Shown: piece after piece, positions 16,398-57,400 of the stretch | How positions within the stretch are numbered: the stretch's first letter is position 1 | Layout: each line of letters begins with the position of its first letter | Assembly (NCBI GenBank): GCA_015063545.1 | Contig: SVTX01000005.1 | Span: forward strand, 1,247 to 65,246 | Source: Oscillospiraceae bacterium | GTDB lineage: Bacteria > Bacillota > Clostridia > Oscillospirales > CAG-272 | Length of the DNA stretch: 64,000 nucleotides | Reading direction: 5' to 3' | Translations under genes and position numbers: made by a program | The notes under the pieces: model-generated | Told to the model about the DNA's origin: nothing | The model's input: the letters and a program-made list of their open reading frames with translations, nothing else | Database searches by the model: none

Positions 16398-17141
16398 CTA
16401 CGAATTTTTCAAAAACTCAATAACCGAGTCGCACAGATGCGAGCAGAGGGTGTCCTTGTATTCGTCACTCTCAAAAAGCTTTGCCTCCGCGACGTTTGAT
16501 AAAAATCCGCATTCCACAAGCACCGCGGGGCAATATGATTGTTCCAACAGGTATATGCTTGAGCCTGCGGATTTTGTTTTTCGGTTATTTTCGGCCTGGA
16601 GTCTTTCTTGGATGTTTTTCTGTATCTTGTTCGCAAGGATTTGGGACTCCGGATTGTTGTCGGAATACCACACCTGAAGTCCCGAATAGCGCGCGTCGGA
16701 GAACGCGTTCATATGCAAGCTGATAAAAATACAGCCCGGAGTGTTTTGAATGATATTCAATCTCGCCGCCATGTCAAGCTTTTTCTTTCTGCCTTGAAAA
16801 TCAGTATTTCTGTCATAAAGAAGTTTGTCTGAATCTCGCGTGAGTATGACATTTACCCCTTGTGCTTCAAGTTTTTCCTTGAGAATAAAGGCTAACGAGA
16901 GGTTTATATCCTTCTCGACAAGCCCCGATTTTGATGATGTTCCTCCGTCCTCACCGCCGTGACCGGCGTCAATTATGACAGTGGAGTATTTGAACTTTAT
17001 TTCTGCGGAGCTTGTGACTTCCTTTTTCTCAAATGCGCCGAAGCCAATAGCGGAGACTGTGAGCAAGATGCTTGACAAAAGTATGATTAAAAGATATGTA
17101 AGTACAGTTTTTTTCATGAGATATCTCTTTTCTTTTTTCAC
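16398..17141 (-). CDS. N-acetylmuramoyl-L-alanine amidase, CwlD-like (Amidase_3)
   Basis: N-terminal TM helix, IDAGHGGEDGG, SLHMNAF and ECGFLSN. Size and architecture resemble the germination-specific amidase CwlD. Confidence 0.75.
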   Translation of the reverse strand: MKKEKRYLMKKTVLTYLLIILLSSILLTVSAIGFGAFEKKEVTSSAEIKFKYSTVIIDAGHGGEDGGTSSKSGLVEKDINLSLAFILKEKLEAQGVNVILTRDSDKLLYDRNTDFQGRKKKLDMAARLNIIQNTPGCIFISLHMNAFSDARYSGLQVWYSDNNPESQILANKIQKNIQERLQAENNRKTKSAGSSIYLLEQSYCPAVLVECGFLSNVAEAKLFESDEYKDTLCSHLCDSVIEFLKNS

Positions 17142-17222
17142 AATTTTATGATAAAATCAAAAATTTTATGCATAATCAATAAAATATGGAAAAAATATCC
17201 GCCGATTATCTCAAAAAAATCA

Positions 17223-17251
17223 TTGACAATAAAATTTATTTTTGTTATAAT
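17223..17251 (+). promoter_or_regulatory. sigma-A type promoter upstream of guaB
   Basis: TTGACA (17223-17228), 17 nt, TATAAT (17246-17251). Confidence 0.6.
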
Positions 17252-17290
17252 TATAGAAATACAAAATTTCACGGTATGATCCGAAAGTGA

Positions 17291-18766
<1,476 letters not shown>

Positions 18767-24115: not shown

Positions 24116-24324
24116 AATACTCCTCGGAAAACGAAATGTGGCGAATCTTGCCGTTAAATGTGGTTTTGGAAACCATATCTGCGTATATTATACACCACAT
24201 CTTTTGAAAATGCAATGGTTTTTTGGAAAATTTAATAAGATTTTTTTATGAGGAATGAGTGAATTGACAAATCTATTCGAGTGTGGTACAATGACAGATA
24301 GTAAAGCAAATGGGGAGAACCGAA

Positions 24325-24792
24325 ATGCGTATAATGTTTGTGTGTCACGGAAATATATGTCGCTCACCGATGGCGGAGTTTATATTTAAAAAGTTATTGT
24401 CCGATAGGGGTATGAGCGAAAGTTTTGTTGTTCAGTCCAGCGCAACCAGCACTGAGGAGATATGGGGAGATATCGGCAATCCCGTTTATCCGCCTGCAAA
24501 AAGAGAACTTGCCTTGCACGGCATAAGTTGCGAAGGGAAACGCGCAGTACAGCTCACGCGCGGGGATTCCGCTAAGTACGATATGTTTATTGGAATGGAC
24601 AGTAACAATATCCGAAACATGCGCCGCATATTGGACAGTTCGGCTCATGGAAAAATATATAAGCTTATGGATTTTACCGAACGCGGAGGAGACGTTGCAG
24701 ATCCGTGGTATTCGGACAGATTTGATATTGCTTTTCGGGATATACATGAGGGTTGTATTTGTTTGCTGGAGTATATTGTTAACAAAATGTAA
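24325..24792 (+). CDS. low-molecular-weight protein-tyrosine phosphatase
   Basis: P-loop VCHGNICRSP (CX5R-S) and DP motif (VADPWY). Promoter TTGACA 24264-24269 / TACAAT 24287-24292. Confidence 0.85.
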   Translation: MRIMFVCHGNICRSPMAEFIFKKLLSDRGMSESFVVQSSATSTEEIWGDIGNPVYPPAKRELALHGISCEGKRAVQLTRGDSAKYDMFIGMDSNNIRNMRRILDSSAHGKIYKLMDFTERGGDVADPWYSDRFDIAFRDIHEGCICLLEYIVNKM

Positions 24793-24800
24793 ATTACATT

Positions 24801-24828
24801 AAAATCCGAGCTTCGGCTCGGATTTTTA
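24801..24828 (+). terminator. rho-independent terminator after the LMW-PTP gene
   Basis: ATCCGAGC-ttcg-GCTCGGAT-tttt. Confidence 0.75.
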
Positions 24829-24829
24829 A

Positions 24830-24858
24830 TTGACAAAAGCCACCGTTTATGTTATACT
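24830..24858 (+). promoter_or_regulatory. sigma-A type promoter of the 24952-39844 operon
   Basis: TTGACA (24830-24835), 17 nt, TATACT (24853-24858). Followed by AT-rich direct repeats at 24863-24902. Confidence 0.5.
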
Positions 24859-24951: not shown

Positions 24952-26454
24952 ATGACGTTAACGGTATTTTCGTTTGCATTTTTGACAGTATTCGTGACTT
25001 GTATGTTACTGTGCATTTTCAAAGGAATCAAAGCGGGATTTGTAAAGACCGCGATTTCTTTGGCGAGCATGGTAGCATCTTTTTTTATTTCCACGCTGAT
25101 AGCGCAAAAAATGTCAAATATATTTGCAGACGATATTGCACAAGCAGTGTATGGCACAAATGTTTTGAGTGATATGGGTGTAAACAGCGAACAGGTAAAC
25201 CAGCTTATCCTGGCGTATGCGGATGCCCTTATAACTCCGTTTTTGTTCCTGCCGTTATTTTTTGTAGTATATCGAATAATCGATTTCATTGTAAATATTG
25301 TTTACAGAACATCGCTCAAGCCATCCTCGGAAGATACGGAATATGAGCTGGAGGGGAAAAATTCTTCAGCATATAATCATAATTCCAAGCTTTTGGGTGG
25401 AATAATCGGCGGTGTGTGCGGAATACTGACGGCTGTGATAATAACTTTCCCGATAATGGGTACGTTGGATTTTGCTTACATAGGATCGTCATTTCTTGAT
25501 CCCGAAAGCGGTTCTATGTACATATACACCCCGGTGAAGGATGATGATATTGATAAGGTGTGTGCATATTCAAAGGACGTTGTAGGAAACGTGATATACT
25601 CAATGGGAGGCAAGCCCATGTATAATTTTGTTGCCCGTTCAAAGCTTAACGGTGTCAATATAGGCATAATGAGCGAGATAGAAAAAACAACAGAAACTGC
25701 GGGACACGTAACATCTCTTATCAATGAGATATCCAAAGGAAAGTCCCGACCGGAGGATCAGTACGAAAAGGTTGAGACGGTAAGAGAGGAGATAAATGAA
25801 TCCGAAACGCTTAAAATTATAATCTGTGAATTCATGTCGATTGCGTCGGAGCGTTGGATTGAGAATGAGCCGTTTATGGGCATGGAGCGTCCTATAAAAA
25901 ATGAAACTACTGACCCGTTTATGGATGAAATATTCTTGCTTTTGAGAACGTCAACTACGGAGACCGCGGCGGACGATATGGCAACTGTACTGCATGTATG
26001 CTTAATACTCATCGACAGTGATATATCCAGTGTGAACGGAGACTATGCGAGCATGCTTGGAGCAATAGATAAAAACAATATGCTGTATGATCTCAGAATA
26101 GAGCTTGAAAAGAATTCAAGAACTAAATATTTATCTGATACGATAAGTGAGATCGTATTAAGAACAACGTCTTCCGCAATGAAGGCGAATGTTGTCGGTA
26201 ATTATGATGCTTTGATAAGCAATCTTACAACCGAGCTGAACCGCGTTAAGCTTCAGGAATATGATGTTCAAGGGGCGCATATCGCTGAAACGTTCAAATC
26301 GGAAATGGAGGCATTCGGTGTTCCGGTGCCCGAGAGCGTTGCCTCAATAGTCGCCGATGAGCTTACCAGACGTCATTGCCGATATTTGCGTGAGACTACA
26401 AAGGACGATGTAAGAAAGTTTTTCGATGGTTACACGGGAATACCGGAGAATTGA
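24952..26454 (+). CDS. CvpA-like 4-TM membrane protein with about 310-aa C-terminal soluble region of unknown function
   Basis: N-terminal helices (FAFLTVFVTCMLLCIFKGIKAGFVKT..., LLGGIIGGVCGILTAVIITFPIMG) resemble the colicin V production (CvpA) fold. The C-terminus is unassigned. Confidence 0.5.
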   Translation: MTLTVFSFAFLTVFVTCMLLCIFKGIKAGFVKTAISLASMVASFFISTLIAQKMSNIFADDIAQAVYGTNVLSDMGVNSEQVNQLILAYADALITPFLFLPLFFVVYRIIDFIVNIVYRTSLKPSSEDTEYELEGKNSSAYNHNSKLLGGIIGGVCGILTAVIITFPIMGTLDFAYIGSSFLDPESGSMYIYTPVKDDDIDKVCAYSKDVVGNVIYSMGGKPMYNFVARSKLNGVNIGIMSEIEKTTETAGHVTSLINEISKGKSRPEDQYEKVETVREEINESETLKIIICEFMSIASERWIENEPFMGMERPIKNETTDPFMDEIFLLLRTSTTETAADDMATVLHVCLILIDSDISSVNGDYASMLGAIDKNNMLYDLRIELEKNSRTKYLSDTISEIVLRTTSSAMKANVVGNYDALISNLTTELNRVKLQEYDVQGAHIAETFKSEMEAFGVPVPESVASIVADELTRRHCRYLRETTKDDVRKFFDGYTGIPEN

Positions 26455-26478
26455 CGGAAATATAAAAGCAGAGTCAGA

Positions 26479-27183
26479 ATGGAGACTGAAATGTTAGATT
26501 ACGTATTTACATATTTGTCACAAGGAATAATTCTTATTGCGAGCCTTACACTGTACGTGTTCTTGATAGGCATGCTGCTTCCGGGAATTCTTTTGAGATT
26601 GCAATTTATCAAAGGCCCCATCAAGGACCGTGGAATAGAAAAGTATACTTCCCCTGATGGCAGAGCAATAGTTTACGAACCCGAAGTGAGGTTCAGAAAA
26701 TATATCAAACAGTATATGCTTTGCTCAATGGATGGCAATAAGTACATAAAGTGCCTTATAGATCCTAAGATAAATCAGCTAAAATATGACGTTTTGGTAT
26801 TTGACAATCAGGATAAGCTTATAGACGTTATAGGGGTAGCGGAACAAACCAATCAAGGGGAATATACGAGGGCGGTACAGCTTCCGGAAAGAACATCGTA
26901 TGTCAGCGTTATATTGAGACGCGCGGACGGAATGTTTTCCAATAACGAGATAAACGTGATATATCCAATTTTGAACGTGTCCGTATATGCGGCATGTATA
27001 GTGGTGGCGACGGCTGTAGAGGCCACTCTTGCAAACAAGTTGATATCCGGTGTGTTTGAGGAATTTGCAGGACAGTTTATGGGTGGCATTTCCGTGATCG
27101 GAAGTTTGTTGCTGGGAATTGCAGCGGCGGCACTCATAATGCTTTCGTGCTTTATAAATGTGATTAGGAAGATAAACAGATGA
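26479..27183 (+). CDS. hypothetical membrane protein (N- and C-terminal TM helices flanking a beta-rich domain)
   Basis: 234-aa ORF. TM helices at GIILIASLTLYVFLIGMLLPGILL and at the C-terminus (VYAACIVVATAV..., ISVIGSLLLGIAAAALIML). Confidence 0.5.
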   Translation: METEMLDYVFTYLSQGIILIASLTLYVFLIGMLLPGILLRLQFIKGPIKDRGIEKYTSPDGRAIVYEPEVRFRKYIKQYMLCSMDGNKYIKCLIDPKINQLKYDVLVFDNQDKLIDVIGVAEQTNQGEYTRAVQLPERTSYVSVILRRADGMFSNNEINVIYPILNVSVYAACIVVATAVEATLANKLISGVFEEFAGQFMGGISVIGSLLLGIAAAALIMLSCFINVIRKINR

Positions 27184-27743
27184 GAAAAATAGAGCAATTC
27201 ATAATAACCAAAGGGCATTACGAGCATTCCCAGATAAAGGGGCTTGTTTCTGTAAAGCAGTATATATTTGCCCGCGTGAAAGGCAAAAAATGCTTGATTT
27301 TGAGATTTTGCAACGAAACGGATTTTAAAGTCAATGCAATCAATTTTGTTGTTCTGCAGTTGAATGCGGCAGGAGAGATAATAGACAGGACACCTGTTCA
27401 ATACAAGGACATTGTGCTTTTGCCGGGTGGTGTCATGTCAATGAATGACGGTATCGTGGTCAGCGAAAAGTGTGCAGATTTCAAGGTTCAGCTCATATCC
27501 GTACAAAGCGGTCAATATGAGTATCGCGTAAAAGACGGTGATACGGTAGCGGTTTACTATAATGCAAAGGAACGTTGGAAACGTCTTGAAAATGCGGCTT
27601 CCCATGCGGATGGGCTTAATGCTGTGTCAAAGCGTCCCGGTAATTTTGGCTTTTTCGCCTTTGTTGCCACGATGAGCGTTCTGGCAATATGCGCGTTGAT
27701 GTTTTGGCCATATATCAAAGACATAATCGGAGAGGTATTTTAA
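27180..27743 (+). CDS. hypothetical protein with C-terminal TM anchor
   Basis: 187-aa ORF with a 4-nt ATGA overlap with the preceding gene. C-terminal helix FGFFAFVATMSVLAICALMFW. Confidence 0.5.
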   Translation: MRKIEQFIITKGHYEHSQIKGLVSVKQYIFARVKGKKCLILRFCNETDFKVNAINFVVLQLNAAGEIIDRTPVQYKDIVLLPGGVMSMNDGIVVSEKCADFKVQLISVQSGQYEYRVKDGDTVAVYYNAKERWKRLENAASHADGLNAVSKRPGNFGFFAFVATMSVLAICALMFWPYIKDIIGEVF

Positions 27744-27752
27744 ATCATACTT

Positions 27753-30700
27753 TTGGAGAAATCTATGTTTAAGTACAATTACATTATTGAAAAACTGACA
27801 GATGAGCAGAAGATAAAAATGCTTACCGATATACGGTATCTGTCGGATATAGAGCTTAAGATGCTGGGAGTGCCGGGTGTAAACATAGCATCGCTGGAGG
27901 ACTATTATAGAAACGTATATCCGTCTCCTGTTGCATTGGCAAATTCGTGGAACACACAGCTTATAGGAGACGTAGCTGATGATATATACAGGACTATGTC
28001 TGCGGGATATGTAAATCACGCTATAGTACCCAATCCTAAAATAAAGATAAATCCTTGCCGCAAGGCGCTTTCTGAGGATCCGTATTTGGCATCTGCCATT
28101 AGCGGAGAATATCTGAAACGCGCAAATTTCCTTCGGCTCTCGACGAGTATGACGGGATTTTACGTAAAGGGAGATGAGACTGAGTGGCTTGATGATGTTC
28201 CAAATGACAGGATAATCAATAACTATATAGTGGATCCGTACAGACGCGCTATGAAGATGGGAGCGTGTAGCGGAATAATAAGTGACGCATCACACTTCAA
28301 GCATTCTTACGACGGTGTTAACACTGCCTTATCCCAAACCGTGACAAGCGGAGCTATGGCAGGCAACAAGGTATGGTATATCAACAGAAGCGCTTCTTCT
28401 GATGAGACGGTTTTCTGCATAGTGAACGGAACGATATGCTTCAGCGCATCGGACCGAGCTTTACGCGCGGCTTATAAACGTTATCATTCTTTGGAGAGAT
28501 CGGTGAAAAACGGAAATACGACGGTTGGAGAATTGGATCTTGAGATCGAGCAGTTCCGAGCAATATCACCCGAAATGCTCAATAAAGCGATAGACGGACT
28601 TTTGGATTTTGCATTTGCTTGCTCACAGAACCAAGTGGGCAATATGATATACCCCGTAAACAGGAAACAACTGGCATCAGTAGCGGCACAAGAATCTGTC
28701 GTGTTGCTTAAAAATGCTTGCGATATTCTGCCATTATCGGCTCATGCCAAGGTCGCGCTTATGGGTGACATTCTCAGAGATGGGGGCGAAGGTGTGCGCG
28801 ATGAAAGCGAATTTGTCGATTGCTTCAACTCACTGGGATACGAATGTGTGGGCTTTGCTCCGGGCTATAACATAAGAAGCGAGGTCGGAGACAATCTGAT
28901 AGGTGATGCGGTAAGACTTGCTTCAAGTGCCGATATTGCGGTGCTGTTTTTGGGCACTACGGCGGCACATGAGCATTACATAACCAAAACCAATAAGCTA
29001 ACACTGCCCGCAAATCAACTTGCTTTGGCTGAAGCAATATACAATACCCACAAGAGCGTTATAGTAGTTATGTCAGGTAACTATGCCATAGATATAGATT
29101 TTGCCAAACGGGCAGACGGATTTATATTGGCTCCGCTTAATTGCAGAGACGGTGTGCTTGCGGCTATCAGTACAATTACAGGAGAGATCAATCCTTGCGG
29201 CAAGCTTACAAATTCCCTTTACAGTAATACAAGACACATGCTCGAAAAGCAGCATGCCTACAGAACGGTATGGAAAAATAAGGTCGGTCCGTTTTTTGGA
29301 TACCGTTATTATGATACGGCAAATATAGATGTCGGCTATCCTTTCGGTTTTGGTCTTTCTTATACCAAATTTGCCTATTCGGCATTAGAGGTAAACGGCG
29401 ATACTGTAAGCTTTGCCGTCAAGAACAGTGGCAAAATGGCGGGCGCAGAGATCGCTCAGATATACGTGGGAATAGAGGAGTCGTCAGTCATCCGCCCCAA
29501 AAAGGAATTGGTCGGATTTGCGAAGATACATCTGGATCCCGGACAGAAAAAAACGGTAAAGCTTAAAATAGAGCTACCCAAAATATATGACACAAAGACG
29601 GGTATGTCCGAAACGGAACGCGGAAACTACACCGTATACGTAGCATCTGCGGTAAACGATATCCGATTGCAGAAAACAATATTCGGAGGAAATAAACCGC
29701 TTGAACCGCAGAGAGATAAGCTTTGCGATTATCTTCAATCCGAATCAAATATTTTCGCGGGCAAATATACATTGGAGGCAAATTATAAACCTATGAAAAA
29801 ATCAGCAAAAAATTTGGTGTTTGGCATTTCCGCTTTTATTTTGGCGGTGTGCATTTTGGCATATTGTATGATAACCGATATAGATGCAGTGTTCTTCAAG
29901 CTGATATCGGCGGCGCTTTGCGTGGCAGCGGTGATATTCTTTGGTATTGAGATATCCGAGCGAAATCAAGCTCGCGAGAAGGCGCGAAAGGAAATGGATA
30001 AAATAAATAAGCAAGCATTTGGCGATGCAAAACAAGTTCCCGTATTTGCCGCAGGACAGATGTTTGTAAAGGAGTTTGACTCTATAGACAAGAGTGTTTC
30101 TGCCGATAAGCCCAAGCAGGATAATCAGTTTGCGGCAGAATATATGGCGCATATCAATAAGCAGCTTACCTATTCAAAGGCGTGTGAGGAGTTTGAAGCG
30201 TTTGCGGCACAGAGAGGATTCAGTTTTAGCGCCGATACCGTAAGAGAGATATTCTGTGCGATATCTACCTCGCGTCTTATTGTAGTGCGTGGCATGGTGA
30301 GTGAAAATTTTGCTAATCTTGTGCATTTGCTTTGCGAATACTTTGAATCTCCGTTCTTCATGGATAGAATAGATTCATCGTATATAAACGAAGATCGAGT
30401 TTTGTTCGGTCAAGCGCAGGATGGTTCAAGAATCAAAAGACCGATTATGCTTGCTATGGAAGCGGCATCAAACGTAAAGCAGAATATTCATTTTGTTGCT
30501 CTTGACGGTGTTAAAACGGCGGATATATCAAACTACTTTGTGCCGTTTGCGAGATACGCGGGCAACCCGTACAGTAAGTGCAGCATTTCTGCTATGAATC
30601 AAAAGAACGTTCCGGTAACATACTATATCCCCGAAAATTTGTGGTTTATTATAAACCTTGACAAGGATCAGACGCTTGATACCTTGCCCGGGTATATTTC

Positions 30701-31142
30701 CAATATTGCATCTGTAAACGATTTTGAATTTGCAAGGACAACACCATCGGGAGCCATGACACAGGTATTCAGCTTCAAATACTATCAGCTTGACTACCTG
30801 AGCGAAAAGATCAAGTCATATGAGTTGGATGAGGATGTCTGGAAGAAGATAGACAGATTTGAGGAATACGTAAATTCTCACGAGCCTTATCACATCGGAA
30901 ATAAGCAGTGGTTGGGACTTGAAAAATACGCGGCAGTATTTATGGCGTGTGACGGAGAACGTGAAATGGCAATCGATCACGCTATGTCGGCAAGACTATT
31001 GCCTTCGGTGGTATCAGTGCTTTCTGCAAAGATATCCAAAGAAGATAGGGGAGTGTGCGAAACACTCGGAAATATTTTCGGAGAAGAAAACGTAAGCTGT
31101 AGCTGTAAAGTAATCAAGGACAGCGGAGCAGATATTATTTGA
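27753..31142 (+). CDS. chimeric protein: GH3-like (divergent barrel + conserved alpha/beta-sandwich + Fn3-like) module, TM hairpin, degenerate McrB/AAA_5-like domain
   Basis: GH3 C-domain and Fn3-like blocks are clear (VVLLKNACDILPL; NPCGKLTNSLY; PFGFGLSYTKFAY; AEIAQIYVG...RPKKELVGFAKIHL). There is no N-terminal signal peptide. Two TM helices lie at about 29812-29950. The C-terminal region aligns with the next gene's AAA+ core but has GMVSENFAN in place of Walker A and LDGVK in place of LDEMN. Confidence 0.7.
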   Translation: MEKSMFKYNYIIEKLTDEQKIKMLTDIRYLSDIELKMLGVPGVNIASLEDYYRNVYPSPVALANSWNTQLIGDVADDIYRTMSAGYVNHAIVPNPKIKINPCRKALSEDPYLASAISGEYLKRANFLRLSTSMTGFYVKGDETEWLDDVPNDRIINNYIVDPYRRAMKMGACSGIISDASHFKHSYDGVNTALSQTVTSGAMAGNKVWYINRSASSDETVFCIVNGTICFSASDRALRAAYKRYHSLERSVKNGNTTVGELDLEIEQFRAISPEMLNKAIDGLLDFAFACSQNQVGNMIYPVNRKQLASVAAQESVVLLKNACDILPLSAHAKVALMGDILRDGGEGVRDESEFVDCFNSLGYECVGFAPGYNIRSEVGDNLIGDAVRLASSADIAVLFLGTTAAHEHYITKTNKLTLPANQLALAEAIYNTHKSVIVVMSGNYAIDIDFAKRADGFILAPLNCRDGVLAAISTITGEINPCGKLTNSLYSNTRHMLEKQHAYRTVWKNKVGPFFGYRYYDTANIDVGYPFGFGLSYTKFAYSALEVNGDTVSFAVKNSGKMAGAEIAQIYVGIEESSVIRPKKELVGFAKIHLDPGQKKTVKLKIELPKIYDTKTGMSETERGNYTVYVASAVNDIRLQKTIFGGNKPLEPQRDKLCDYLQSESNIFAGKYTLEANYKPMKKSAKNLVFGISAFILAVCILAYCMITDIDAVFFKLISAALCVAAVIFFGIEISERNQAREKARKEMDKINKQAFGDAKQVPVFAAGQMFVKEFDSIDKSVSADKPKQDNQFAAEYMAHINKQLTYSKACEEFEAFAAQRGFSFSADTVREIFCAISTSRLIVVRGMVSENFANLVHLLCEYFESPFFMDRIDSSYINEDRVLFGQAQDGSRIKRPIMLAMEAASNVKQNIHFVALDGVKTADISNYFVPFARYAGNPYSKCSISAMNQKNVPVTYYIPENLWFIINLDKDQTLDTLPGYISNIASVNDFEFARTTPSGAMTQVFSFKYYQLDYLSEKIKSYELDEDVWKKIDRFEEYVNSHEPYHIGNKQWLGLEKYAAVFMACDGEREMAIDHAMSARLLPSVVSVLSAKISKEDRGVCETLGNIFGEENVSCSCKVIKDSGADII

Positions 31143-31167
31143 GTACAGAATTGTAAGGAGAAGGAAT

Positions 31168-32496
31168 ATGTTAATTTTTCCTAAACTTTTAGACTTTGGT
31201 GCGATAAAAAGTATTGCCGCATCTCTTCCCGGGATGTTTACATCGGGAACAGCAATAATAATTTATCTTTTTATAATTCTCTCAATTATCGCTATACTTG
31301 TTATCTCAATAATAATCAGCGAGAACAAAAACAGCTCCAAGGCATCTGCCTCAGAGCAATCTCCGCAGGTTATTAACATTTCCGGTATTTCAAAAACCAC
31401 CGAGGAAGAACCCGGTCGAGAGAGATTTTGTATGCTGAACAGAATAGACGAGAAGAGAAATGAGTACGGACACGAAAAATACGAGCGTCAGATAAGTCTT
31501 GAGGCTATATGTGAAAATTTCCGGAACTATTCGGCAAGTAAGCTTGGACTGTATTACGATATAGACGATATAAGAAGATTTGTAGCAGGGATGTCGGTAT
31601 CAAGAATACTGATACTTCAAGGCATGTCGGGAACGGGAAAAACGTCTATGGCGCATGCATTCGGAAAGTTTATAGATAATCCCTCAACAGTCATCCCGGT
31701 GCAGCCTATGTGGAAGGAGAGAACCGACCTTATAGGATACTATAACGAGTTTACAAAGAGATTTAACGAGACGTTGCTTTTGGAGAAGATGTACGAAGCG
31801 AACTACAGCAAGGACATGTACGTAACGGTTCTTGATGAGATGAATATAGCGAGAGTAGAGTATTACTTTGCGGAATTTTTGTCTCTTTTGGAGCTTCCTA
31901 ATCCTGAAGAAAGATATCTTGAGGTAGTGTCTGACAGATGGGAGACGGACCCTGTACAGCTCAGAGACGGAAGGATAAAGCTACCCGAGAACATGTGGTT
32001 TGTGGGAACTGCAAACAATGACGACTCTACGTTTGCGATATCGGACAAGGTATATGACAGAGCGATGATACTGAATCTTGATAAGAAGAACGAGAGATTT
32101 GTAGCCCCGAACACCGAGAAGATGTGTATATCGGCAGAGCAGTTTGTGGCACTCACGGAGAATGCCAAGAAGGAGTATGCGGTAAGTCGCAGAAACAGAA
32201 ACAGACTTGAAGAATTTGACAAATATCTCATCAAGCACTTTGGAATAACCTTCGGAAACAGAATAATGAAGCAGATACTCAGCTATATTCCCGTGTATAT
32301 AAGCTGCGGAGGAGATGAGCTCGAGGCGCTTGACGATATACTGTCAAAGAAAGTAATAAGAAAGCTTGAAACTCAGAACCCCATATATCTCAGACAGGCA
32401 TCGGAAGAGCTTTTGACTTATATGGATGAGCTGTTCGGAGCAGAGAACATGGGTATATGCCGTGAGCATATTCGTAAATTACAGAGAAATGCGTAA
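31168..32496 (+). CDS. membrane-tethered McrB/AAA_5-family NTPase
   Basis: N-terminal TM helix (TAIIIYLFIILSIIAILVISIII). Walker A GMSGTGKTS (31621-31647), Walker B VLDEMN (31831-31845) and the MWFVGTANNDDST block are typical of McrB-like AAA+. Confidence 0.75.
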   Translation: MLIFPKLLDFGAIKSIAASLPGMFTSGTAIIIYLFIILSIIAILVISIIISENKNSSKASASEQSPQVINISGISKTTEEEPGRERFCMLNRIDEKRNEYGHEKYERQISLEAICENFRNYSASKLGLYYDIDDIRRFVAGMSVSRILILQGMSGTGKTSMAHAFGKFIDNPSTVIPVQPMWKERTDLIGYYNEFTKRFNETLLLEKMYEANYSKDMYVTVLDEMNIARVEYYFAEFLSLLELPNPEERYLEVVSDRWETDPVQLRDGRIKLPENMWFVGTANNDDSTFAISDKVYDRAMILNLDKKNERFVAPNTEKMCISAEQFVALTENAKKEYAVSRRNRNRLEEFDKYLIKHFGITFGNRIMKQILSYIPVYISCGGDELEALDDILSKKVIRKLETQNPIYLRQASEELLTYMDELFGAENMGICREHIRKLQRNA

Positions 32497-32518: not shown

Positions 32519-34711
32519 ATGAAAAACAGAATTAAGATAACCAATACAATATGTGTTCTTATCGTTGGAACTGTTTTGTCGTTGGCGTTGGCTCTTACTT
32601 GCTTGGCATTATTCAGTGATGACTTGTTTTCATCTGATGATCCGGGGCAGAGTGGCGGCGGTGCGTCCTTGGGAGAAGAAATATACAAGGATTACTTTGG
32701 CAATGTTGAGATTCCCAGTAACATAGAGTATCCCAGCGAGCTGTTTAGCGGAGATTTGCCGTCGGAATGGCCCTCGGAGTTCCCGTCGGAGTTCCCGTCG
32801 GAATGGCCGTCGGAATGGCCGTCGGAATGGCCGTCGGAGTTCCCGTCGGAATGGCCCTCGGAGTTCCCGTCGGAGTTCCCGTCGGAATGGCCGTCGGAAT
32901 GGCCGTCGGAGTTCCCGTCGGAATGGCCGTCAGAGTGGCCGTCGGAGTTCCCGTCGGAATGGCCGTCGGAATGGCCGTCGGAGTTCCCGTCGGAATGGCC
33001 GTCAGAGTGGCCGTCGGAGTTCCCATCGGAATTTCCATCTGAGGATGGCGGAATAGGAATCCCTCCCGATGACGCAGGAGATAATAAGATTGCATATATT
33101 ATCCAATCCGATCAAACCGAAAGGCTTTATCTCAAAGGGCAAAGCTTCGGAAATTATACAGGCAATTCATGGACAGCGGCGACACAATACAACACGTTGA
33201 TAAATGGGAAGTATTCAGCTGCATATCTGCCGGGATTGCGTCTTGAGGCGAACAGCGCAAGACGGTATACAGTAAAAATAAATCCTCAGTTGAATCAATA
33301 CGTTTATCCGTATTTCATATCTACCGCAACGGACACTGTTCAGTACAGTGATGTTGTTGCGGTTGGAAATGCGAATGATATATACGAGGTATATTATTAT
33401 CTTTCGAATCCGCAGAACAATATTTATATTCCCGGTATTGCGGAATACGAAGAACAGTACAGAAATTTTGTGTACGACAATTATCTGTATGTAGATAGCG
33501 AGACTTACAGATATATGTCTTCGCTTATCGATGCAAACGGATGGAGTAAATACGACGCAGATATTATTCAAAAGATTGCCGGATACATACAGGGCTCTGC
33601 AAAATATAACCTGAAATATGACAGAGCACTTGACAAAGAAAGCAATATAGCGATATCATTCCTTGACGAGTACAAGGAGGGAATATGCCAACACTATGCG
33701 ACTGCGGCTACGCTATTATACAGATCTTTAGGTATTCCCGCGAGATATACGGTAGGATTTACCGCGCAGACAATAGCGGGGCAGTGGGTGAATGTAAGCT
33801 ACAGTAATGCCCACGCATGGGTAGAGATATATATTGACGGTGTGGGTTGGCAGTACGTAGAGGTTACAGGATCATCATCTACCGTTCCCCCCGATGATCC
33901 AGATTATCCGGATGATTACGTCATAACGGGGCTTAACATAAGGCCTGAGCGTGTAGAAAAACAATACGACGGTAATCCTTTGGCGCCTGTAAATAGGATC
34001 ACAGGATTTGAAGATTGGGAGAAGAGAGGCTATTCTTATAGCGTTGTTGTGTCCGGTGAGGCAGTATATCCCGGAGTATATCGGTCACAGATAGAATCTA
34101 TAATTTTCTACGATCCTGATAATAACGATATAACCTCGCGTGTACAATATAACACGCATTCCGGAACTATGCACGTTTATATTTGCGAACTTTATTTTGT
34201 CAGTGACGCTATGGAAAAGGAATATGACGGCAAGATATTTGAGACTTATCCGGAAAACTATCACTTGCAGTACGGTGAGCTTATTGAAGGATATACATAC
34301 CGCATAACCCCGAATGTATCCGCAGTCAACGTAGGCAATGGAATTAACTCATTTGATGTGGAAATTCTGGATGAATCCGGCAATGATATAAGCTCGCTAT
34401 ACAAGATAATAAAGGTCTGCGGCGTTTTGGAGATAACTCCGACATCGCTGGTTATCAAAGCTAAGGATGCGACGAAGCCATACGACGGCACGGCGCTGAC
34501 GTGCAACGAAATAGAGATGATAAGCGGCATGCTTGCAGAGGGTGACAGATTGGCAAACTATGAGGTCATAGGAAGTCAGACTGAGATAGGCCGTTCCGAA
34601 AACATTATAGATATCACCTCAGTCCTTATTTTAAACGAGCATAATGAAAATGTTACGAGCAACTATCAGATAGAGTTGCAAAACGGAAAGCTGAGAGTCA
34701 CTAAGGAATGA
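32519..34711 (+). CDS. surface-exposed transglutaminase-core protein with (PSEW/PSEF) repeat stalk and C-terminal MBG-type modules
   Basis: N-terminal signal-anchor helix. Transglutaminase core is [28 protein letters not shown] (Cys390) ... [21 protein letters not shown] (His432, Glu448). There are three YDG...YG modules at the C-terminus. Confidence 0.8.
32759..33046 (+). repeat. 12-nt in-frame tandem array, 23 units encoding PSEW/PSEF plus a terminal PSED
   Basis: The units ccgtcggaatgg / ccgtcggagttc are nearly identical. Rare variants (ccctcggagttc, ccgtcagagtgg) recur with 84- and 72-nt higher-order periods. Confidence 0.95.
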
Positions 34712-34747: not shown

Positions 34748-37700
34748 ATGCGTTACGATAATTATCAAAGAAAAGTGAATAAATTTGTGGAATTTATGCG
34801 CAAGGTAGTAGCGCACATTCCTCAGATAATTATTGCTTTTGCGGCATTTGTGGCAATTGTAGTGACGCTGCTATTGACAAAGGGGCTTGTGTACGGAGAG
34901 AGTGAATGTCCTACGCAAATAACCTACGGCGACAAAGTTAGCTATACGGCGAAGGCATTTATGGGCAAGGTGAATTATGAGTACTGTGAGCAGGGAACTG
35001 ATAATTGGAGCACTCAAATGCCTACAATGCCCGGAAAATATAAAATTCGAGCTGCATCAAAAGCGACGTTTGGCAGAACGTATTACGGAGATGTGTACGA
35101 GTTTACCGTAATTCCAAAGACTATTGACGTAAAAATTTCGGATTCACAAGTAATATACGGGGAAGAGCCCAACGTATCTGCCAAAGTTGCCCGCGGTGAC
35201 AAATTATCTTGCGATAATTTCATATTTACAGATATATCGCAAAAGCAAACAGACGTTTGCGCAGATATTGAAGCCATTTCTATATTGAATAAAGACGGAC
35301 AGGATGTAACGGGGGCATACGTTATAAACACGCCCACTTCGGCTATAACGCTCTTGCCGCGCGATCTGGGTATCAAGGTCTCGGATGCATCTATGGTATA
35401 TAACGGACAGGAGTTCTCATTTGACGGATATGAAATAATCGAAGGAACCCTTGCTTATGAAGATAACCTTGTCGCAGTATTCAAGGATAGTATAATTGAT
35501 GCCGGTCAGATCGAAAACTCTCCTGATTTGTGTATTTACGGTAAAAATGGAGTGGATGTAACAAAGCATTATAAATTCGCTCTGGAGACAGGCAAGCTTA
35601 CGGTTGAAAAACGTCCGATCATAGTTGCCACGGGCGGATATGAAGGTGTATATGACGGACAAAAGCATTATCTGACAGAGTACACGATCGACAGTTCGAC
35701 TGCTCTTGTTGAAGGTCATAGTCTGAATATCAAAGATTTCTCTACAATAACAGATTGCGGAGAAACAGATAATGTAATAGCATTCAATGTGGTCGATACA
35801 GAGAGTATTGATCGTACAAACAACTATTCCTTTTTTGTCAACACTGGAGTTTTAAAGATAACTCCCAAGCCCATAACAGTCCAGACATCAAATGACTCTT
35901 GGGTGTATGACGATGAGGAAAAATCATGTGCGGAATATACGGTCAGCGGTATTGTTGATACACATACGCATTACGCAGTAACCAACACGCATATAAAAAC
36001 AGTCGGCACAAAGCCTAATGAACTGACTGTGGCCATATTCGATGGAGAAAGAGACGTTACGTCAAATTACGATATTGAATATAGCTATGGAACTCTTGAG
36101 GTGTTTGTGCGCCATGTGGTTATACTTACAGCAAGCCAAACGTGGATGTATGACGGCAAGCCCCATATCTGTGCTGATTATGAAGTGACGTCAAAGTACG
36201 GTATAGTGCCCGGACATACTTTGAACGTGGGTGAATATACTACAATTACCAATGTTGATACTGCAACAAATGAATTTTCTGACATTACGGTTACAGGACG
36301 CAGTGGAGAAGACGTAACATCAAATTACAGCATAAGAACGAATAATGGTTGGTTGAATGTAACTTCGCGGCTTGTTACGGTGAAGCCTGCGGATAACAGT
36401 AAAATATACGATGGAACTCCGCTTATATCAGAGAAGCTTGAAATTACAGAAGGCTCATTGGCAGAGGGGCAGACGATCAATGCTACATTTGAGGGAAGCA
36501 TCACGGATATAAATTGGGATGCATACAATTCTTCAAGACAGACCACGGTTGTAAATTCCTTTATCATAGGTGTCCGAATATGTGATACCGAGGGAAGAGA
36601 TGTTTCTTCTAACTATACCGTAACGCGACTGCCGGGAGAGTTGGCTCTGACACAGAGACATATTCTTGTAATGACAGACAGCGCGGAAAAAATATATGAC
36701 GGTACGCCTCTTGCGAATAGTGGGTTCCGAATAAATACAGCTATATCGGACGGACTCGTCAGTGGGCACAGTGTTGCAAATTATAAATTTACCGGCTCGA
36801 TAACAGATGTCGGCGTCGTTTATAATATGATGTCCGTTATTAAAATTTCAAATGAGTCGAATAGGGATGTAACGCATAATTATTACATAGAATACAGCTT
36901 CGGCTCACTGAGCATAGATCACAGACCTATAACAGTAAAGACGGAAAGCTTTTCCAAGGTATATGACGGACAGACGGTAGAATGTAAGGAATACAGCATA
37001 ATAACAAACGAAACATCAATGGGGCTTGCGCCCGGCCAGTATGTGGGAGATATATCGTTTGCCGATAGCGGACTTGTTGATGTTGGAAGTGCGTTTAATG
37101 AGGTGGATCACATAGTGATCTGCGATAGCTCCGGTGTTGATCGTACATATAATTACGAAATAAGCTACGATAAAGGTGTGCTTACGATTACTCAAAGGCC
37201 CATCACTGTTACATCGGACAGTGCATCAAAGGTGTATGACGGAACACCGCTTGTATGTCATACGTTCAAAGTTTCAACAACCCCGTACGGACTGGTTTCA
37301 GGTCATACCGTAAGCGCAAAGTTTACAGGAACGCTTACTGACGTTGCTACCGGTGTGAAAAACAAATTTAGTGTCGAAAATATTTATGACATATACGGAA
37401 ATGATGTTACGCGCAACTATTCCGTTTCGTATGAATACGGAACCCTGACAGTTACGCACAGACCTATCAAAGTTATATCCCAAAGTGCATCAAAGATGTA
37501 TGACGCAAATCCGTTAACGTGTTATGAATATTCCATCCCCGACACACTGTACGGATTGGTGGCATGGCATGAGATCAGCTTAAACTTTAGTGCTTCGGTT
37601 ACCGATGTTGCGGATAATGTAACCAACATGTTTACCGTTATCGACATTACCGACGGTGAAGGAAATTCCGTTATAGATAATTACGAGATAACGTGTGAGT

Positions 37701-54404: not shown

Positions 54405-57400
54405 ATGAAAAGAAGGAAACCTTTAAAGTTCAGAATGCTTGCGGCATTCGTTGCAGCGGTGATGTTAATAAATATAAACGTCTTGCCGCTATCTGCAGTA
54501 TTTGCCGCAGACAATGATGTTGTTAGTACCGGGGCAGCAAGCGCCAATATGTCGGAGGATCAGAACGCCAGACCGCCAACATCGGTTGATGACATAAAAA
54601 TACCTACGGTGAGCGAAAATCCGTATGACATCGAGATCCGACATAAGAATTATCCTGTATTTAATGATGACGGATTTGATTTCTTCCGAGGCGACGAAAA
54701 GGGCGGCTGGATCATGAGTTACGATCTTTTGACAAGCTACGGTACGCACTTCTCGCAGCCCGAAGGGGCAAGCCCGTATTATACGGCGGCTTTGACTCCG
54801 ATGTTTTCATACGAGGTTTACGAAGGTGCTACGGTTAAAAGCCAGCTCCCATACAGAGAGGGAAGAACGGATATGCTTCATTCCGAGCTGACGTTGACAA
54901 ACGGAACGATAGAAACCGGTTTTTATTCGCTTGACAGCTTTTTCCAACAGATCAATTCGCAATATGCGATCAATAAAGATCAGGTGTTTGTGAGAGTTGG
55001 AGCGACATTGCTTTCCGGACAAGGCAGGATCTACGTTAACGCCACCACATCGTATAGCGAGTACGGAAAAGTGAGTGACGGAGAAGCCAAAGAGTTTTGG
55101 GTAGACGTACCGCTTAATGAGGTTCACGAATGGACGCAGATATGGTTTGAAGCGTATGAGCCATCAAATGCATATCAGTCTGATGCCATTATGACGGATT
55201 TCTTCATAACGCTCGTGGACAACACTAACCCCACGGTGACGGGGATGACCGTTGAAAAGCAGATGCGCGATGAGCAGAATGCCGATCTCGTGATCAATAT
55301 GAAATTTAATGAGGGCATTCGAATCACATCTGACAGAGCATACGATCTATTGGATGATATATGGCTCTCGCTTGAGTTGCTTGATCTGAACACAGGCGAG
55401 AGATCAACAGTGCGGATGTATCTTGAAAAGCTGAACGACGACGGCACACTCACTTTCCGCGGCGATATCGGTCTTTATCATTACAAAAACTTCAGGGTAA
55501 GCAGAATAACCAAATTTAATATTCCGAGTGAGAATCAATGGCCAACTAGGGGAATGGTAGACCTTGCGGATGAATTTTATGTTAGTGCTTACGATAAAGT
55601 TGACTATGGCAACGACATAATTGAGATAGACACCATAGATAATCTCAGACAGCATAGATTTAATACCACGGTGCTATCCGACTACGCGAGCAACCCCATC
55701 AATACGGCAAGCGTAGTCAACTGGCAGTTTGGAAATCAGGTCTATATTTCAAACACGTTTGAGACAACTGAGCTGAGACTTTATACGGAGCAGACACTGA
55801 GAAAAACACAGCTTGCTGCCGAGGGTGAAAAAACCGAAGCGGAGCTTACCGATCAGTTTATCGGACCTTCAAGAACACTTATCGTGTACGCATACCTCGA
55901 TCAGACGCTAACGGATGAGGAAGCGAGCAAGGTTTGGCTTGAGCTTAACATCCTGCATCCCGACGGCACACCTGTCAAGGCATACGCGACCTCCTGGAGT
56001 CAGTACAAAATCGATGAACTTTATACCAACGGAAGCACCACGGCAACGCTTTTGAAATTTGAAAACATTAAGTTTACGGAAGGTATGATGCCGGAAATTG
56101 CAGAAGGTGAGGAGCCTGTTGTAAAGGTTGCAAGGCTTGGAGACGATATCGAGGATAAGACAGCATATCCCAATGTAAAGGATTCGGTGACAGATATATA
56201 CGCGGATTTCACAGGTCCTGAGGTGACGCTTCGTAAGTATGCGGCGTATTCAAACACAGAGAGTGATGGCGCCGAAGCAACGTCAACGAATTATAAGGTA
56301 AGCATTGCGATTGGAATAAAGGACGTCGAAAACTATACAAGATACGCAAATCTGATTGGAAGCAAGATGTTCGTAGAGCTTGGCGGCGGCGTAAGCAAGG
56401 ATACAAGCTTCAGATATATCCTTACGGATAACCCAACAGCCCCCGAAGCCGTTGAGGGTTACACGAGCATAGGAACTATCTCCAAGGACGGAAAATGGAG
56501 TGTTGGATCAACTACGTTGCTAAACAATTATACAGAGATGTATCTCCATGTACTGTTCGAGACCAACGACATCTACCTTGATGAGCTGTACGTTAACGTA
56601 ATAGCGGAGGATTCGGTCGGAAACAAAGCCGTTGAGGTTCCCACCGATATGCTTGACTATAAGATAGACGAGATAGCGCCGGAGATCAGGTACGAATACC
56701 GATATGCAAAAGCGGTAGACAACAATACGAATATTGAGGTCTACATAGGCGCATCCGCGACGGACAGCAGCGATATAGTTCAGATACTTTACAGTTGGGG
56801 AGAAAATCCCGATCAAATTATTACCGATCTGCCTGATTCTGTTATTTCCCAAAATGCAGAGTGGCAGACTGCGGTATTTGACAGGGGAACGGACATTACG
56901 GTTGAACTGATGAGGAAATTCGGAGACGGAACACCCGATTCGGATAAGATCTATTACGAAACGCTTTATATCAAGGCTGTTGATGAATACGGCAACGAAA
57001 GTGAGCCCGTTGCAATCAGTATCTCGGTAAGCCTGCAAAAGCCTGCTACGAATATGAGATTCGAGGGCAATATGAATGCGGTGAGCAGAGATCACAGGGT
57101 GATTGTCACAGTTCCCGATGCATCAATGTTTGATAATTCCGACGCGTATACGAGAGTGGCCGTAACGCCCTCGGGAAGTGAGTATTCCTACGTGACGCTG
57201 GTTAAAACGGGGGAGACCGCAAATATTCTTTCTTTCAAGGGACTTACATGGTACAAGGTCATACGTCAAGGAAATATTTACACTTACGTATCCGCCCCCG
57301 AATTTGTCGGAGAAGATTACGAGATCCACGAGAACAGTATTATGTACGATCTGTTTACCTACTACGGTGATATTAAGGTGTCCTTTGAAAACGGATACGG

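Follow-up and report, generated by a model that had tools for sequence, protein, structure and literature searches.

What role can a protein play in which two different enzymes have been joined and both appear to have lost their catalytic residues? The question is raised by a gene of an Oscillospiraceae bacterium (Clostridia; assembly GCA_015063545.1) located on contig SVTX01000005.1, of which positions 1,247 to 65,246 of the forward strand were analyzed. This whole stretch of 64,000 nucleotides (nt) is referred to as the window, and coordinates given without a locus name are positions within it. The encoded chimera consists of a barrel of glycoside hydrolase family 3 (GH3), the α/β sandwich of the same family, an Fn3-like domain, a transmembrane (TM) hairpin, and a McrB-type AAA+ domain, in this order. 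Its gene is followed by that of an intact, TM-anchored McrB-like NTPase. The findings described here give a slightly better than even chance that the chimera serves, with both catalytic sites dead, as an adaptor or scaffold subunit of a nuclease-less machine that is derived from McrBC and tethered to the membrane. We have far less confidence in any particular physiological role.

The open reading frame (ORF) of the chimera is open from a TTG at 27753 (27753..31142, + strand), from which an earlier, sequence-only reading of this DNA had derived a length of 1129 amino acids (aa). All relatives start with MLKY, which aligns with MFKY of the window protein, and a GGAGA is located just 5′ of the ATG at 27765. 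For these reasons, the ATG was taken as the likely start, which corrects the length to 1125 aa. The gene is composed of the following parts.

27765..31142, + strand: chimera gene (pseudo-GH3, TM hairpin, pseudo-McrB AAA+; 1125 aa)
27765..28664, + strand: GH3 (β/α)8 barrel-like domain (aa 1–300; HHalign probability 99.9%, E=1.1e-33; motif census)
28698..29363, + strand: GH3 C-terminal α/β sandwich (aa 312–533; Pfam PF01915, GH3_C, E=1.8e-25)
29448..29648, + strand: Fn3-like domain (aa 562–628; Pfam PF14310, E=2.3e-15)
29700..29810, + strand: juxtamembrane segment (DYLQSESNI..YTLEA..MKKS; 47% mean pairwise identity)
29811..29954, + strand: TM hairpin (aa 683–703 and 710–730; hydropathy)
30150..31139, + strand: McrB-type AAA+ domain plus lid, predicted to be dead (about aa 796–1125; BLASTP, HHalign, AlphaFold2, Foldseek, motif census)
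30288–30317, + strand: Walker A equivalent (peptide GMVSENFAN at 30291–30317)
30492–30512, + strand: Walker B equivalent (peptide LDGVK at 30501–30515)
30648–30668, + strand: sensor-1 equivalent of the C-terminal domain

The two enzyme modules of the chimera

The α/β sandwich and the Fn3-like domain are both recognized by Pfam, and the peptides that the sequence-only reading had quoted from these conserved blocks lie at the expected positions. The best solved relative of the chimera is β-glucosidase B (7ms2), which matches aa 263–639 with E=2.5e-55; over aa 50–166, the same search returned faint pieces only. The Pfam family of the GH3 barrel (PF00933) was not detected in the chimera. When the first 300 residues of 25 members were compared with ordinary GH3 barrels as profiles, however, the match extended over 272 collinear columns, and because of its probability of 99.9%, the barrel is regarded as a genuine, though very divergent, GH3 domain.

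For a census of catalytic motifs, these 25 members were aligned with eight ordinary GH3 enzymes from the same search. The canonical motifs are present in all eight ordinary enzymes, with [ST]DW in 8/8. In the chimera family, the DGPxGxR loop is deleted in every member (25/25), which removes 17 aa from the window protein. The KH dyad is replaced by TG and the SYN motif, which provides the Tyr of the −1 subsite, by SDA in the window protein, and both positions vary among the 25 members. At the position of the nucleophile motif [ST]DW, the window protein carries NRS; none of the 25 members has the Asp, and the residues found instead are variable. The acid/base motif E[ST]EGxDR reads HEHYITK in the window protein. 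Of its two Glu residues, the second is absent from 25/25 members and the first is kept in part of the family; the assignment of the acid/base within E[ST]EG follows GH3 structures. A family-specific insert of ~25 aa follows the former nucleophile strand. The KH dyad and the nucleophile motif, which the sequence-only reading had been unable to find by eye, are thus missing in the alignment as well and kept by 0/25 members. This census indicates that the GH3 module is catalytically dead throughout the family. An active GH3 enzyme with shifted catalytic residues was considered and rejected, since no conserved acidic residue acts as a substitute: the sole invariant or near-invariant acidic pair of the barrel is the structural SEDP motif common to ordinary GH3 enzymes. 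A conserved replacement polar cluster is not evident among the invariant columns of the chimera family either.

Compared with the cytoplasmic GH3 β-glucosidases (7ms2, 8j9f, and 5wab), the chimera shows a collinear arrangement of barrel, sandwich, and Fn3-like domain and the same lack of a signal peptide. It differs from them by the loss of the catalytic and −1 subsite residues, by the ~25-aa insert, and by the extension of its C terminus with the TM hairpin and the dead AAA+ domain. The hydropathy profile contains no hydrophobic segment before aa 680, in agreement with the earlier statement that a signal peptide is absent. Because the ordinary GH3 relatives all lack a signal peptide too, the signal-less state appears to be a trait inherited from cytoplasmic BglB-type enzymes and no special feature of the chimera. 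The nearest ordinary GH3 enzymes (P0045, P0048, and P0053; 805–819 aa) carry C-terminal extensions of 50–100 aa with hydrophobic or amphipathic stretches, which hints that the ancestor of the dead GH3 module was perhaps already membrane-associated.

The two TM helices are joined by an acidic loop of six residues and flanked on both sides by Lys/Arg-rich segments, namely KPMKKSAKN before the hairpin and SERNQAREKARK after it. The sequence-only reading had placed such a hairpin at about 29812–29950; helices and flanks are as described there, and the coordinates were 1 nt out of frame. By the positive-inside rule applied to these flanks, the GH3 and AAA+ modules are both predicted to be cytoplasmic, as had been proposed. 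The juxtamembrane segment before the first helix is the most conserved stretch of the whole chimera.

The C-terminal domain resembles the product of the next gene. BLASTP of chimera aa 700–1125 against the next ORF (31168..32496) gave E=8e-18 over 330 residues, and HHalign of the two family profiles gave a probability of 99.7% and E=6.2e-27 over 325 columns, spanning the AAA+ core, the lid, and the C-terminal helices. The alignment noticed from the sequence alone is hereby substantiated, and the matches indicate that the domain is a true paralogue of the adjacent NTPase. An AlphaFold2 model of aa 745–1125, built from 46 family sequences only, reached a predicted local distance difference test (pLDDT) score of 87.4 and a predicted template modeling (pTM) score of 0.83. 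With this model, the top five Foldseek matches are chains of Escherichia coli McrB (E=1.5e-6 to 2.9e-5; best 6hz4), followed by NorQ, RavA, MCM, BchI, and dynein, with CbbQ also among the structural matches.

The Walker A Lys occurs in none of the 46 members and is replaced by Phe in 39/46, whereas the Walker B Glu is found in two of them. The sensor-1 Asn is lost, its commonest replacement being Ala (26 members) along with Lys, Asp, and Glu, and in the Arg-finger column the commonest residues are Ile, Val, Ala, and Ser. The lid, in contrast to these sites, still has its motifs GN(K/R), E, AxD, and FGE. The sequence-only reading had described both Walker motifs as lacking; both are indeed degenerate, yet in Walker B only the Glu is lost and the Asp is retained. 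These substitutions suggest that the AAA+ domain is catalytically dead throughout the family, so that the doubly degenerate character formerly proposed for the window protein extends to its relatives, with both catalytic sets lost family-wide.

The family is large and uniform. With the dead AAA+ domain as sole query, 698 cluster representatives at 50% identity were retrieved, 166 of them at E≤1e-30. Nearly all matched proteins are 1050–1440 aa long with the domain at about aa 740–1120, the complete members of the 166 clusters keep the same architecture, and intact full-length ORFs of identical architecture occur in >100 clusters at 50% identity. Matches of 450–550 aa were considered as variants lacking the GH3 module and rejected; because they begin at an internal Met or in mid-domain on short contigs, they are gene fragments. 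The family alignment contains 36 invariant and about 50 near-invariant columns, the mean pairwise identity per domain is 28–47%, and no frameshifts occur. The dead domains are conserved to the same degree as the remaining parts, a pattern that argues for purifying selection on all domains of the chimera. In public databases, it is annotated as ‘glycoside hydrolase family 3 C-terminal domain-containing protein [Clostridia bacterium]’, a name that would mislead counts of carbohydrate-active enzymes (CAZymes) in gut and rumen metagenomes. An NCBIfam scan gave nothing beyond GH3 equivalogs far below threshold and McrB, and a scan of genome contigs with the back-translated generic GH3 motif PFGHGLSY found ordinary GH3 genes only and no loci of the family.

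The partner NTPase and the operon

The operon was read from nine informative loci of different metagenomes, with orthology read from gene sizes, gene order, and Pfam families for L088–L091 and confirmed by BLASTP for the remaining loci. It starts with genes for a protein of ~500 aa with N-terminal TM helices, a protein of ~235 aa with TM segments at both ends, and a tail-anchored protein of ~190 aa. These are followed by the chimera, a TM-McrB-like NTPase, a soluble coiled-coil protein of 565–650 aa, and a second TM-McrB-like NTPase. One or two N-terminally anchored transglutaminase-core repeat proteins and a giant repeat protein complete the order. The distance from the chimera stop to the NTPase start is 11–37 nt in every locus with a readable downstream gene. 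The window contains the following features besides the chimera.

24830..24858, + strand: promoter-like site before operon gene 1 (11/12 match, extended −10 TG; consensus match only)
24952..26454, + strand: operon gene 1 (500 aa; N-terminal CvpA-like TM helices, large helical domain)
26479..27183, + strand: operon gene 2 (234 aa; TM segments at both ends)
27180..27743, + strand: operon gene 3 (187 aa; tail-anchored protein)
31168..32496, + strand: TM-anchored McrB-like AAA+ NTPase (442 aa; Pfam AAA_5, McrB in the PDB, PADLOC, motif census)
31397..32496, + strand: near-identical direct repeat AAA#1/AAA#2 (probable collapse or deletion site; junction 32496/32497)
32519..34711, + strand: transglutaminase-core protein (730 aa; N-terminally anchored; PSEW/PSEF array, YDG-type repeats)
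34748..39844, + strand: giant repeat surface protein (1698 aa; N-terminal TM helix; YDG / AgI-II C2-like repeats)
39849..39873, no strand assigned: palindromic GC-rich hairpin immediately behind the final gene of the operon (consensus match only)

The NTPase consists of an N-terminal TM anchor (aa 19–55) and an AAA_5 domain with intact motifs: Walker A GMSGTGKTS, Walker B LDEMN, the signature TANNDDS (NxD+D), and YDR, all of which are invariant in 29/29 sequences of the neighbor family. McrB is its sole significant relative in the PDB (E=3.5e-4), and some JGI entries label it ‘MoxR-like ATPase’. The signature reads ANNDD in the window NTPase, where plasmid-borne relatives, aligned without a gap, have ANHDE; in E. 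coli McrB it reads MNTAD. An NxD followed by E or D is the defining feature of one McrBC branch, to which the CoCoNuT and CoCoPALM systems belong (Bell et al., eLife 2024, PMC11090510), and by this definition the window NTPase is placed in the NxD branch. Its motifs mark it as a McrB-type NTPase of the GTPase clade, with predicted activity. At least 8000 NTPase clusters at 90% identity were scored. Across genomes, the NTPase is 60–80% identical, whereas the chimera reaches only 25–46% and the first operon gene 22–26%.

The nearest relatives outside the family share 37–40% identity and are located on plasmids of Deinococcus, Rhodoferax, Nostoc, and others. An origin of the operon from a mobile element was rejected, as there are no close plasmid or phage matches (all <60% identity and confined to the AAA+ core). 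In the two plasmid loci examined, a protein annotated as ‘DUF2357 domain-containing protein’ directly follows the NTPase relative with its ANHDE signature; these are L094 3621–8149 (Deinococcus sp. AJ005 plasmid p96k) and L095 3624–7813 (a Rhodoferax antarcticus plasmid). Both relatives are ‘AAA family ATPases’ of ~800 aa with about 39% identity and a large AAA-domain protein upstream, a layout that can be described as CoCoNuT-like and plasmid-borne.

The coiled-coil protein, named ‘hypothetical protein [Ruminococcaceae bacterium]’ in the database, is a probable nuclease-less McrC-N (DUF2357) protein. In McrC, DUF2357 forms the N-terminal domain, whose insertion into the McrB ring activates this ring (PMC11090510). 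The corresponding Pfam family (PF09823) is matched by 8/29 homologues and is the sole recurrent family among them other than coiled coils. Four of these homologues, scored singly, reach 25–31 bits against a gathering cut-off of 23.3 (best E=2.6e-7), whereas the copy closest to the window (P0398) scores below threshold. A nuclease domain could not be detected in the protein, and its C-terminal half forms a single long coiled-coil helix. PDB sequences searched with a profile yielded coiled-coil proteins only, and the AlphaFold model reached pLDDT 76.8 and pTM 0.43. Since this model has no significant match in the PDB, the McrC-N assignment rests on the Pfam matches of the relatives.

As assembled, the window has a single NTPase gene and lacks the coiled-coil gene. 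Contig L091 matches window 25168–32496 with 100% identity. Past the NTPase stop, it goes on to encode a coiled-coil protein of 570 aa and the beginning of a second NTPase, and it ends 142 nt into the repeat. A coiled-coil gene also follows the NTPase in five other distinct full-length operons (L085, L086, L088/L089, L090, and L004). The gene for this 570-aa protein, with parts of the repeat on its flanks, is also present on five further short contigs, of which one stems from sample 3300023371, a sample that gave a window-like contig as well. From the continuation of L091 and the repeat-flanked short contigs, it follows that the window probably skipped ~3 kb. Most likely, its McrC-like gene and second McrB were lost by collapse of the direct repeat during assembly; a real recombinational deletion between the repeats is less likely.

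Within a genome, the twin NTPase genes differ only in their first 70–100 residues, which contain unrelated TM anchors. The remaining ~1.1 kb show 99.5–100% DNA identity in L085 (13387–14706 versus 16440–17789 in the repeat comparison), L086, L088, and L090. For L004, the DNA identity is 94%, with 56 synonymous and 0 non-synonymous differences. This points to concerted evolution or to selection for an identical motor on two anchors. A pair kept identical by gene conversion would at the same time constitute a repeat that breaks or collapses short-read assemblies.

A putative membrane machine and its rivals

The McrB matches, the NxD+D signature, and the probable DUF2357 partner indicate McrBC ancestry of the operon. 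In a dead scaffold within such a machine, the hairpin would hold both modules at the inner face of the membrane, and the dead AAA+ domain may dock onto or insert into rings of active TM-McrB subunits, by analogy with BchD/BchI. The putative McrC-N coiled-coil protein would stimulate GTP hydrolysis in the way that McrC stimulates McrB. The dead GH3 module would sit where McrB homologues have a variable N-terminal specificity domain and could serve as a docking platform for a cytoplasmic ligand or partner. Since the operon lacks a nuclease gene and its last genes always encode Sec-type anchored transglutaminase and giant repeat proteins, the output is probably directed to the envelope and not to nucleic acid; it may consist in anchoring or displaying the co-encoded transglutaminase adhesins or in controlling them. 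Tentatively, and with clearly less confidence than the scaffold function itself, a vertically maintained membrane machine of gut and rumen Clostridia (Oscillospiraceae-like) may be envisaged that acts mechanically, driven by GTP, on the cytoplasmic anchors of these adhesins. Herein, the doubly dead GH3–McrB fusion would be a specificity or stator subunit of the TM-McrB rings, and the effect would be the display, tensioning, release, or turnover of transglutaminase-bearing giant adhesins. If correct, this would represent a non-defence, envelope-directed use of McrBC without a described counterpart.

Some findings weigh against a scaffold in a machine of this kind. The lid motifs common to the dead and active domains are generic to the NxD clade and no proof of a shared interface. 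The tie of chimera and NTPase to the surface proteins consists of synteny only. For the model of the coiled-coil protein, Foldseek found no similar solved structure (best E=0.48). Finally, the NTPase matches the PADLOC defence-candidate model PDC-M26A at 8.5e-47. The last point leads to an unlikely alternative, namely anti-phage or anti-plasmid defence of the McrBC/CoCoNuT type, in which infection would be sensed by the membrane-tethered GTPase together with its dead paralogue. The part of the effector would fall not to a PD-(D/E)xK nuclease but, for example, to the transglutaminase-fold proteins or to membrane disruption. The plasmid McrB–DUF2357 pairs as nearest non-family relatives, the membership of the NxD branch that contains the CoCoNuTs, and the variation of the flanking genes among genomes fit such a function. 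Nevertheless, no nuclease family was matched in any operon protein at the thresholds used, neither a HEPN domain nor any other known effector was recognized among the operon genes, and the NTPase alone matched PADLOC among the operon proteins scanned. The gene order is rigid and the NTPase stays 60–80% identical over many lineages, whereas defence genes are usually patchy and fast-evolving. Moreover, the operon is set among housekeeping genes, it is constantly coupled to Sec-type N-terminally anchored surface proteins, and phage matches number just two, both weak.

About as improbable as defence is a GH3 module that binds sugar without catalysis and makes the chimera a cytoplasmic sensor of glycan, muropeptide, or glycoprotein that gates the NTPase. 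The retention of the GH3 fold under selection is consistent with it, and non-catalytic proteins of carbohydrate-enzyme fold that bind glycosylated adhesin precursors are known from the accessory Sec system; speculatively, the Pro/Ser-rich PSEW array of the co-encoded transglutaminase protein could be glycosylated. Against this stand the loss of each residue class of the −1 subsite at positions that vary within the family, the deletion of the DGPxGxR loop, and the missing replacement cluster among the invariant columns. As the whole −1 subsite is gone, the glycan or muropeptide binding that the sequence-only reading had suggested finds no support. The two dead catalytic sites might also mark the chimera as a decaying relic, formed when a GH3 gene and a duplicated NTPase gene were fused and now losing function. 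This is so improbable as to be negligible: the intact ORFs of the same architecture in >100 clusters, the invariant and near-invariant columns, the equal conservation of the dead domains, and the fixed operon position effectively refute it, as far as family-wide conservation can tell. A dead adaptor of a McrBC-derived membrane machine remains the reading that we prefer.

The described systems closest to such an adaptor and its partners are those of the McrBC NxD branch (PMC11090510). They share the McrB-type AAA+ fold of the NTPase and of the chimera's C-terminal domain, an active copy with the NxD signature followed by Asp, and a partner in which a probable DUF2357 domain is fused to a long coiled coil without a nuclease. 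CoCoPALM in addition shares membrane association by TM fusion to the GTPase. Unlike these systems, the operon lacks a nucleic-acid-binding specificity domain, a nuclease, or a HEPN partner, and it contains two GTPase genes with near-identical AAA+ parts, a third, dead McrB paralogue fused to a dead GH3 enzyme, and, always, transglutaminase giant surface proteins. Unlike in CoCoPALM, no signal-peptidase or pilin family is found among its genes, and its GTPase has a plain TM anchor and no coiled coil, although no search was aimed at FtsB homology. The 2024 census deferred CoCoPALM (GTPase fused to an FtsB-like TM/coiled-coil segment; signal-peptidase and pilus genes) to a later paper, and GH3 and transglutaminase partners are not mentioned in its main text and two supplementary files (PMC11090510). 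Literature on CoCoPALM follow-ups and on PDC-M26 yielded nothing on the operon, and no description was found of the operon, of a combination of McrB, transglutaminase, and GH3, or of a GH3–AAA+ pseudoenzyme.

The BchI–BchD, NorQ–NorD, CbbQ–CbbO, and RavA–ViaA pairs likewise combine an active AAA+ protein with a larger protein that contains a degenerate AAA+ copy and an adaptor. In BchI–BchD and MoxR-type pairs, the inactive copy presumably docks onto the ring of active subunits. The likeness is one of analogy: the operon belongs to the McrB subclade, its dead module is C-terminal instead of N-terminal, a dead GH3 enzyme replaces the vWA/MIDAS domain as adaptor, and all subunits are membrane-anchored. 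The MoxR–DUF58–TgpA arrangement also encodes a cytoplasmic AAA_5-class ATPase with a membrane transglutaminase-fold protein. Here, the TgpA_N match of the transglutaminase protein is weak (1.3e-4, below cut-off), the ATPase is AAA_5/McrB-like and not MoxR (AAA_3), and a DUF58 or vWA match is lacking. The Lap system contains a transglutaminase-fold protease that acts on a giant adhesin and is controlled by a membrane protein whose cytoplasmic enzyme domains are degenerate (PMC6890996). The chimera has no GGDEF/EAL domains, and with an outer loop of only 6 aa it cannot itself bind an external protein; LapD–LapG–LapA is a functional analogy only.

Since the folds are known and the pairing of active and degenerate AAA+ copies has precedents, while the operon itself is undescribed, it was classed as a variant of known systems. 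It is widespread in gut and rumen Clostridia and seems to constitute an abundant membrane system of McrBC descent, so far not described, in which a fusion of two dead enzymes is a fixed subunit. For the most part, McrBC has been viewed as a restriction motor directed at nucleic acid, with the note on CoCoPALM as the sole hint of another use. A rigid, nuclease-less, membrane-tethered derivative would, if confirmed, clearly exemplify the recruitment of a defence motor to envelope biology. The chimera would herein be a rare single polypeptide with two different dead enzymes under selection and a model for pseudoenzymes that become scaffolds.

Surroundings of the operon in the window

The window is chromosomal, with genes for ArgRS, RecN, IMPDH, and indolepyruvate oxidoreductase nearby, and the genes that flank the operon differ between genomes. 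A hairpin at 24801–24826 lies on the upstream side of the operon, and the hairpin after the last gene (39849–39873) is a likely terminator. Within the transglutaminase gene, a tandem array at 32758–33032 with a period of 12/36 nt encodes the PSEW/PSEF repeats; in the near-identical strain of L092, its copy number is off by about 158 nt. Farther downstream, at 54405–62327 (+ strand), an ORF of 2640 aa gave no Pfam match at E≤1e-5.

At L002 2369–9913, a 2514-aa LRR_5 protein has an N terminus that is 38% identical to the ~120-aa N-domain of operon gene 3. In this protein, the gene-3-like N-domain is followed by a TM helix (aa 153–185) and then by extracellular repeats. The N-domain of gene 3 hence resembles a cytoplasmic ‘handle’ with which a giant surface protein can be fitted, and its TM-linked fusion to an LRR giant fits cytoplasmic handles on surface proteins as part of the system.

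A gene for a low-molecular-weight phosphotyrosine phosphatase (LMWPc, Pfam 1.2e-27) is located just 5′ of the operon in the window (24310–24792). Such a gene also lies directly 5′ of the chimera in the distant locus L004 (9311–9796), making this phosphatase a possible recurrent neighbor of the operon.

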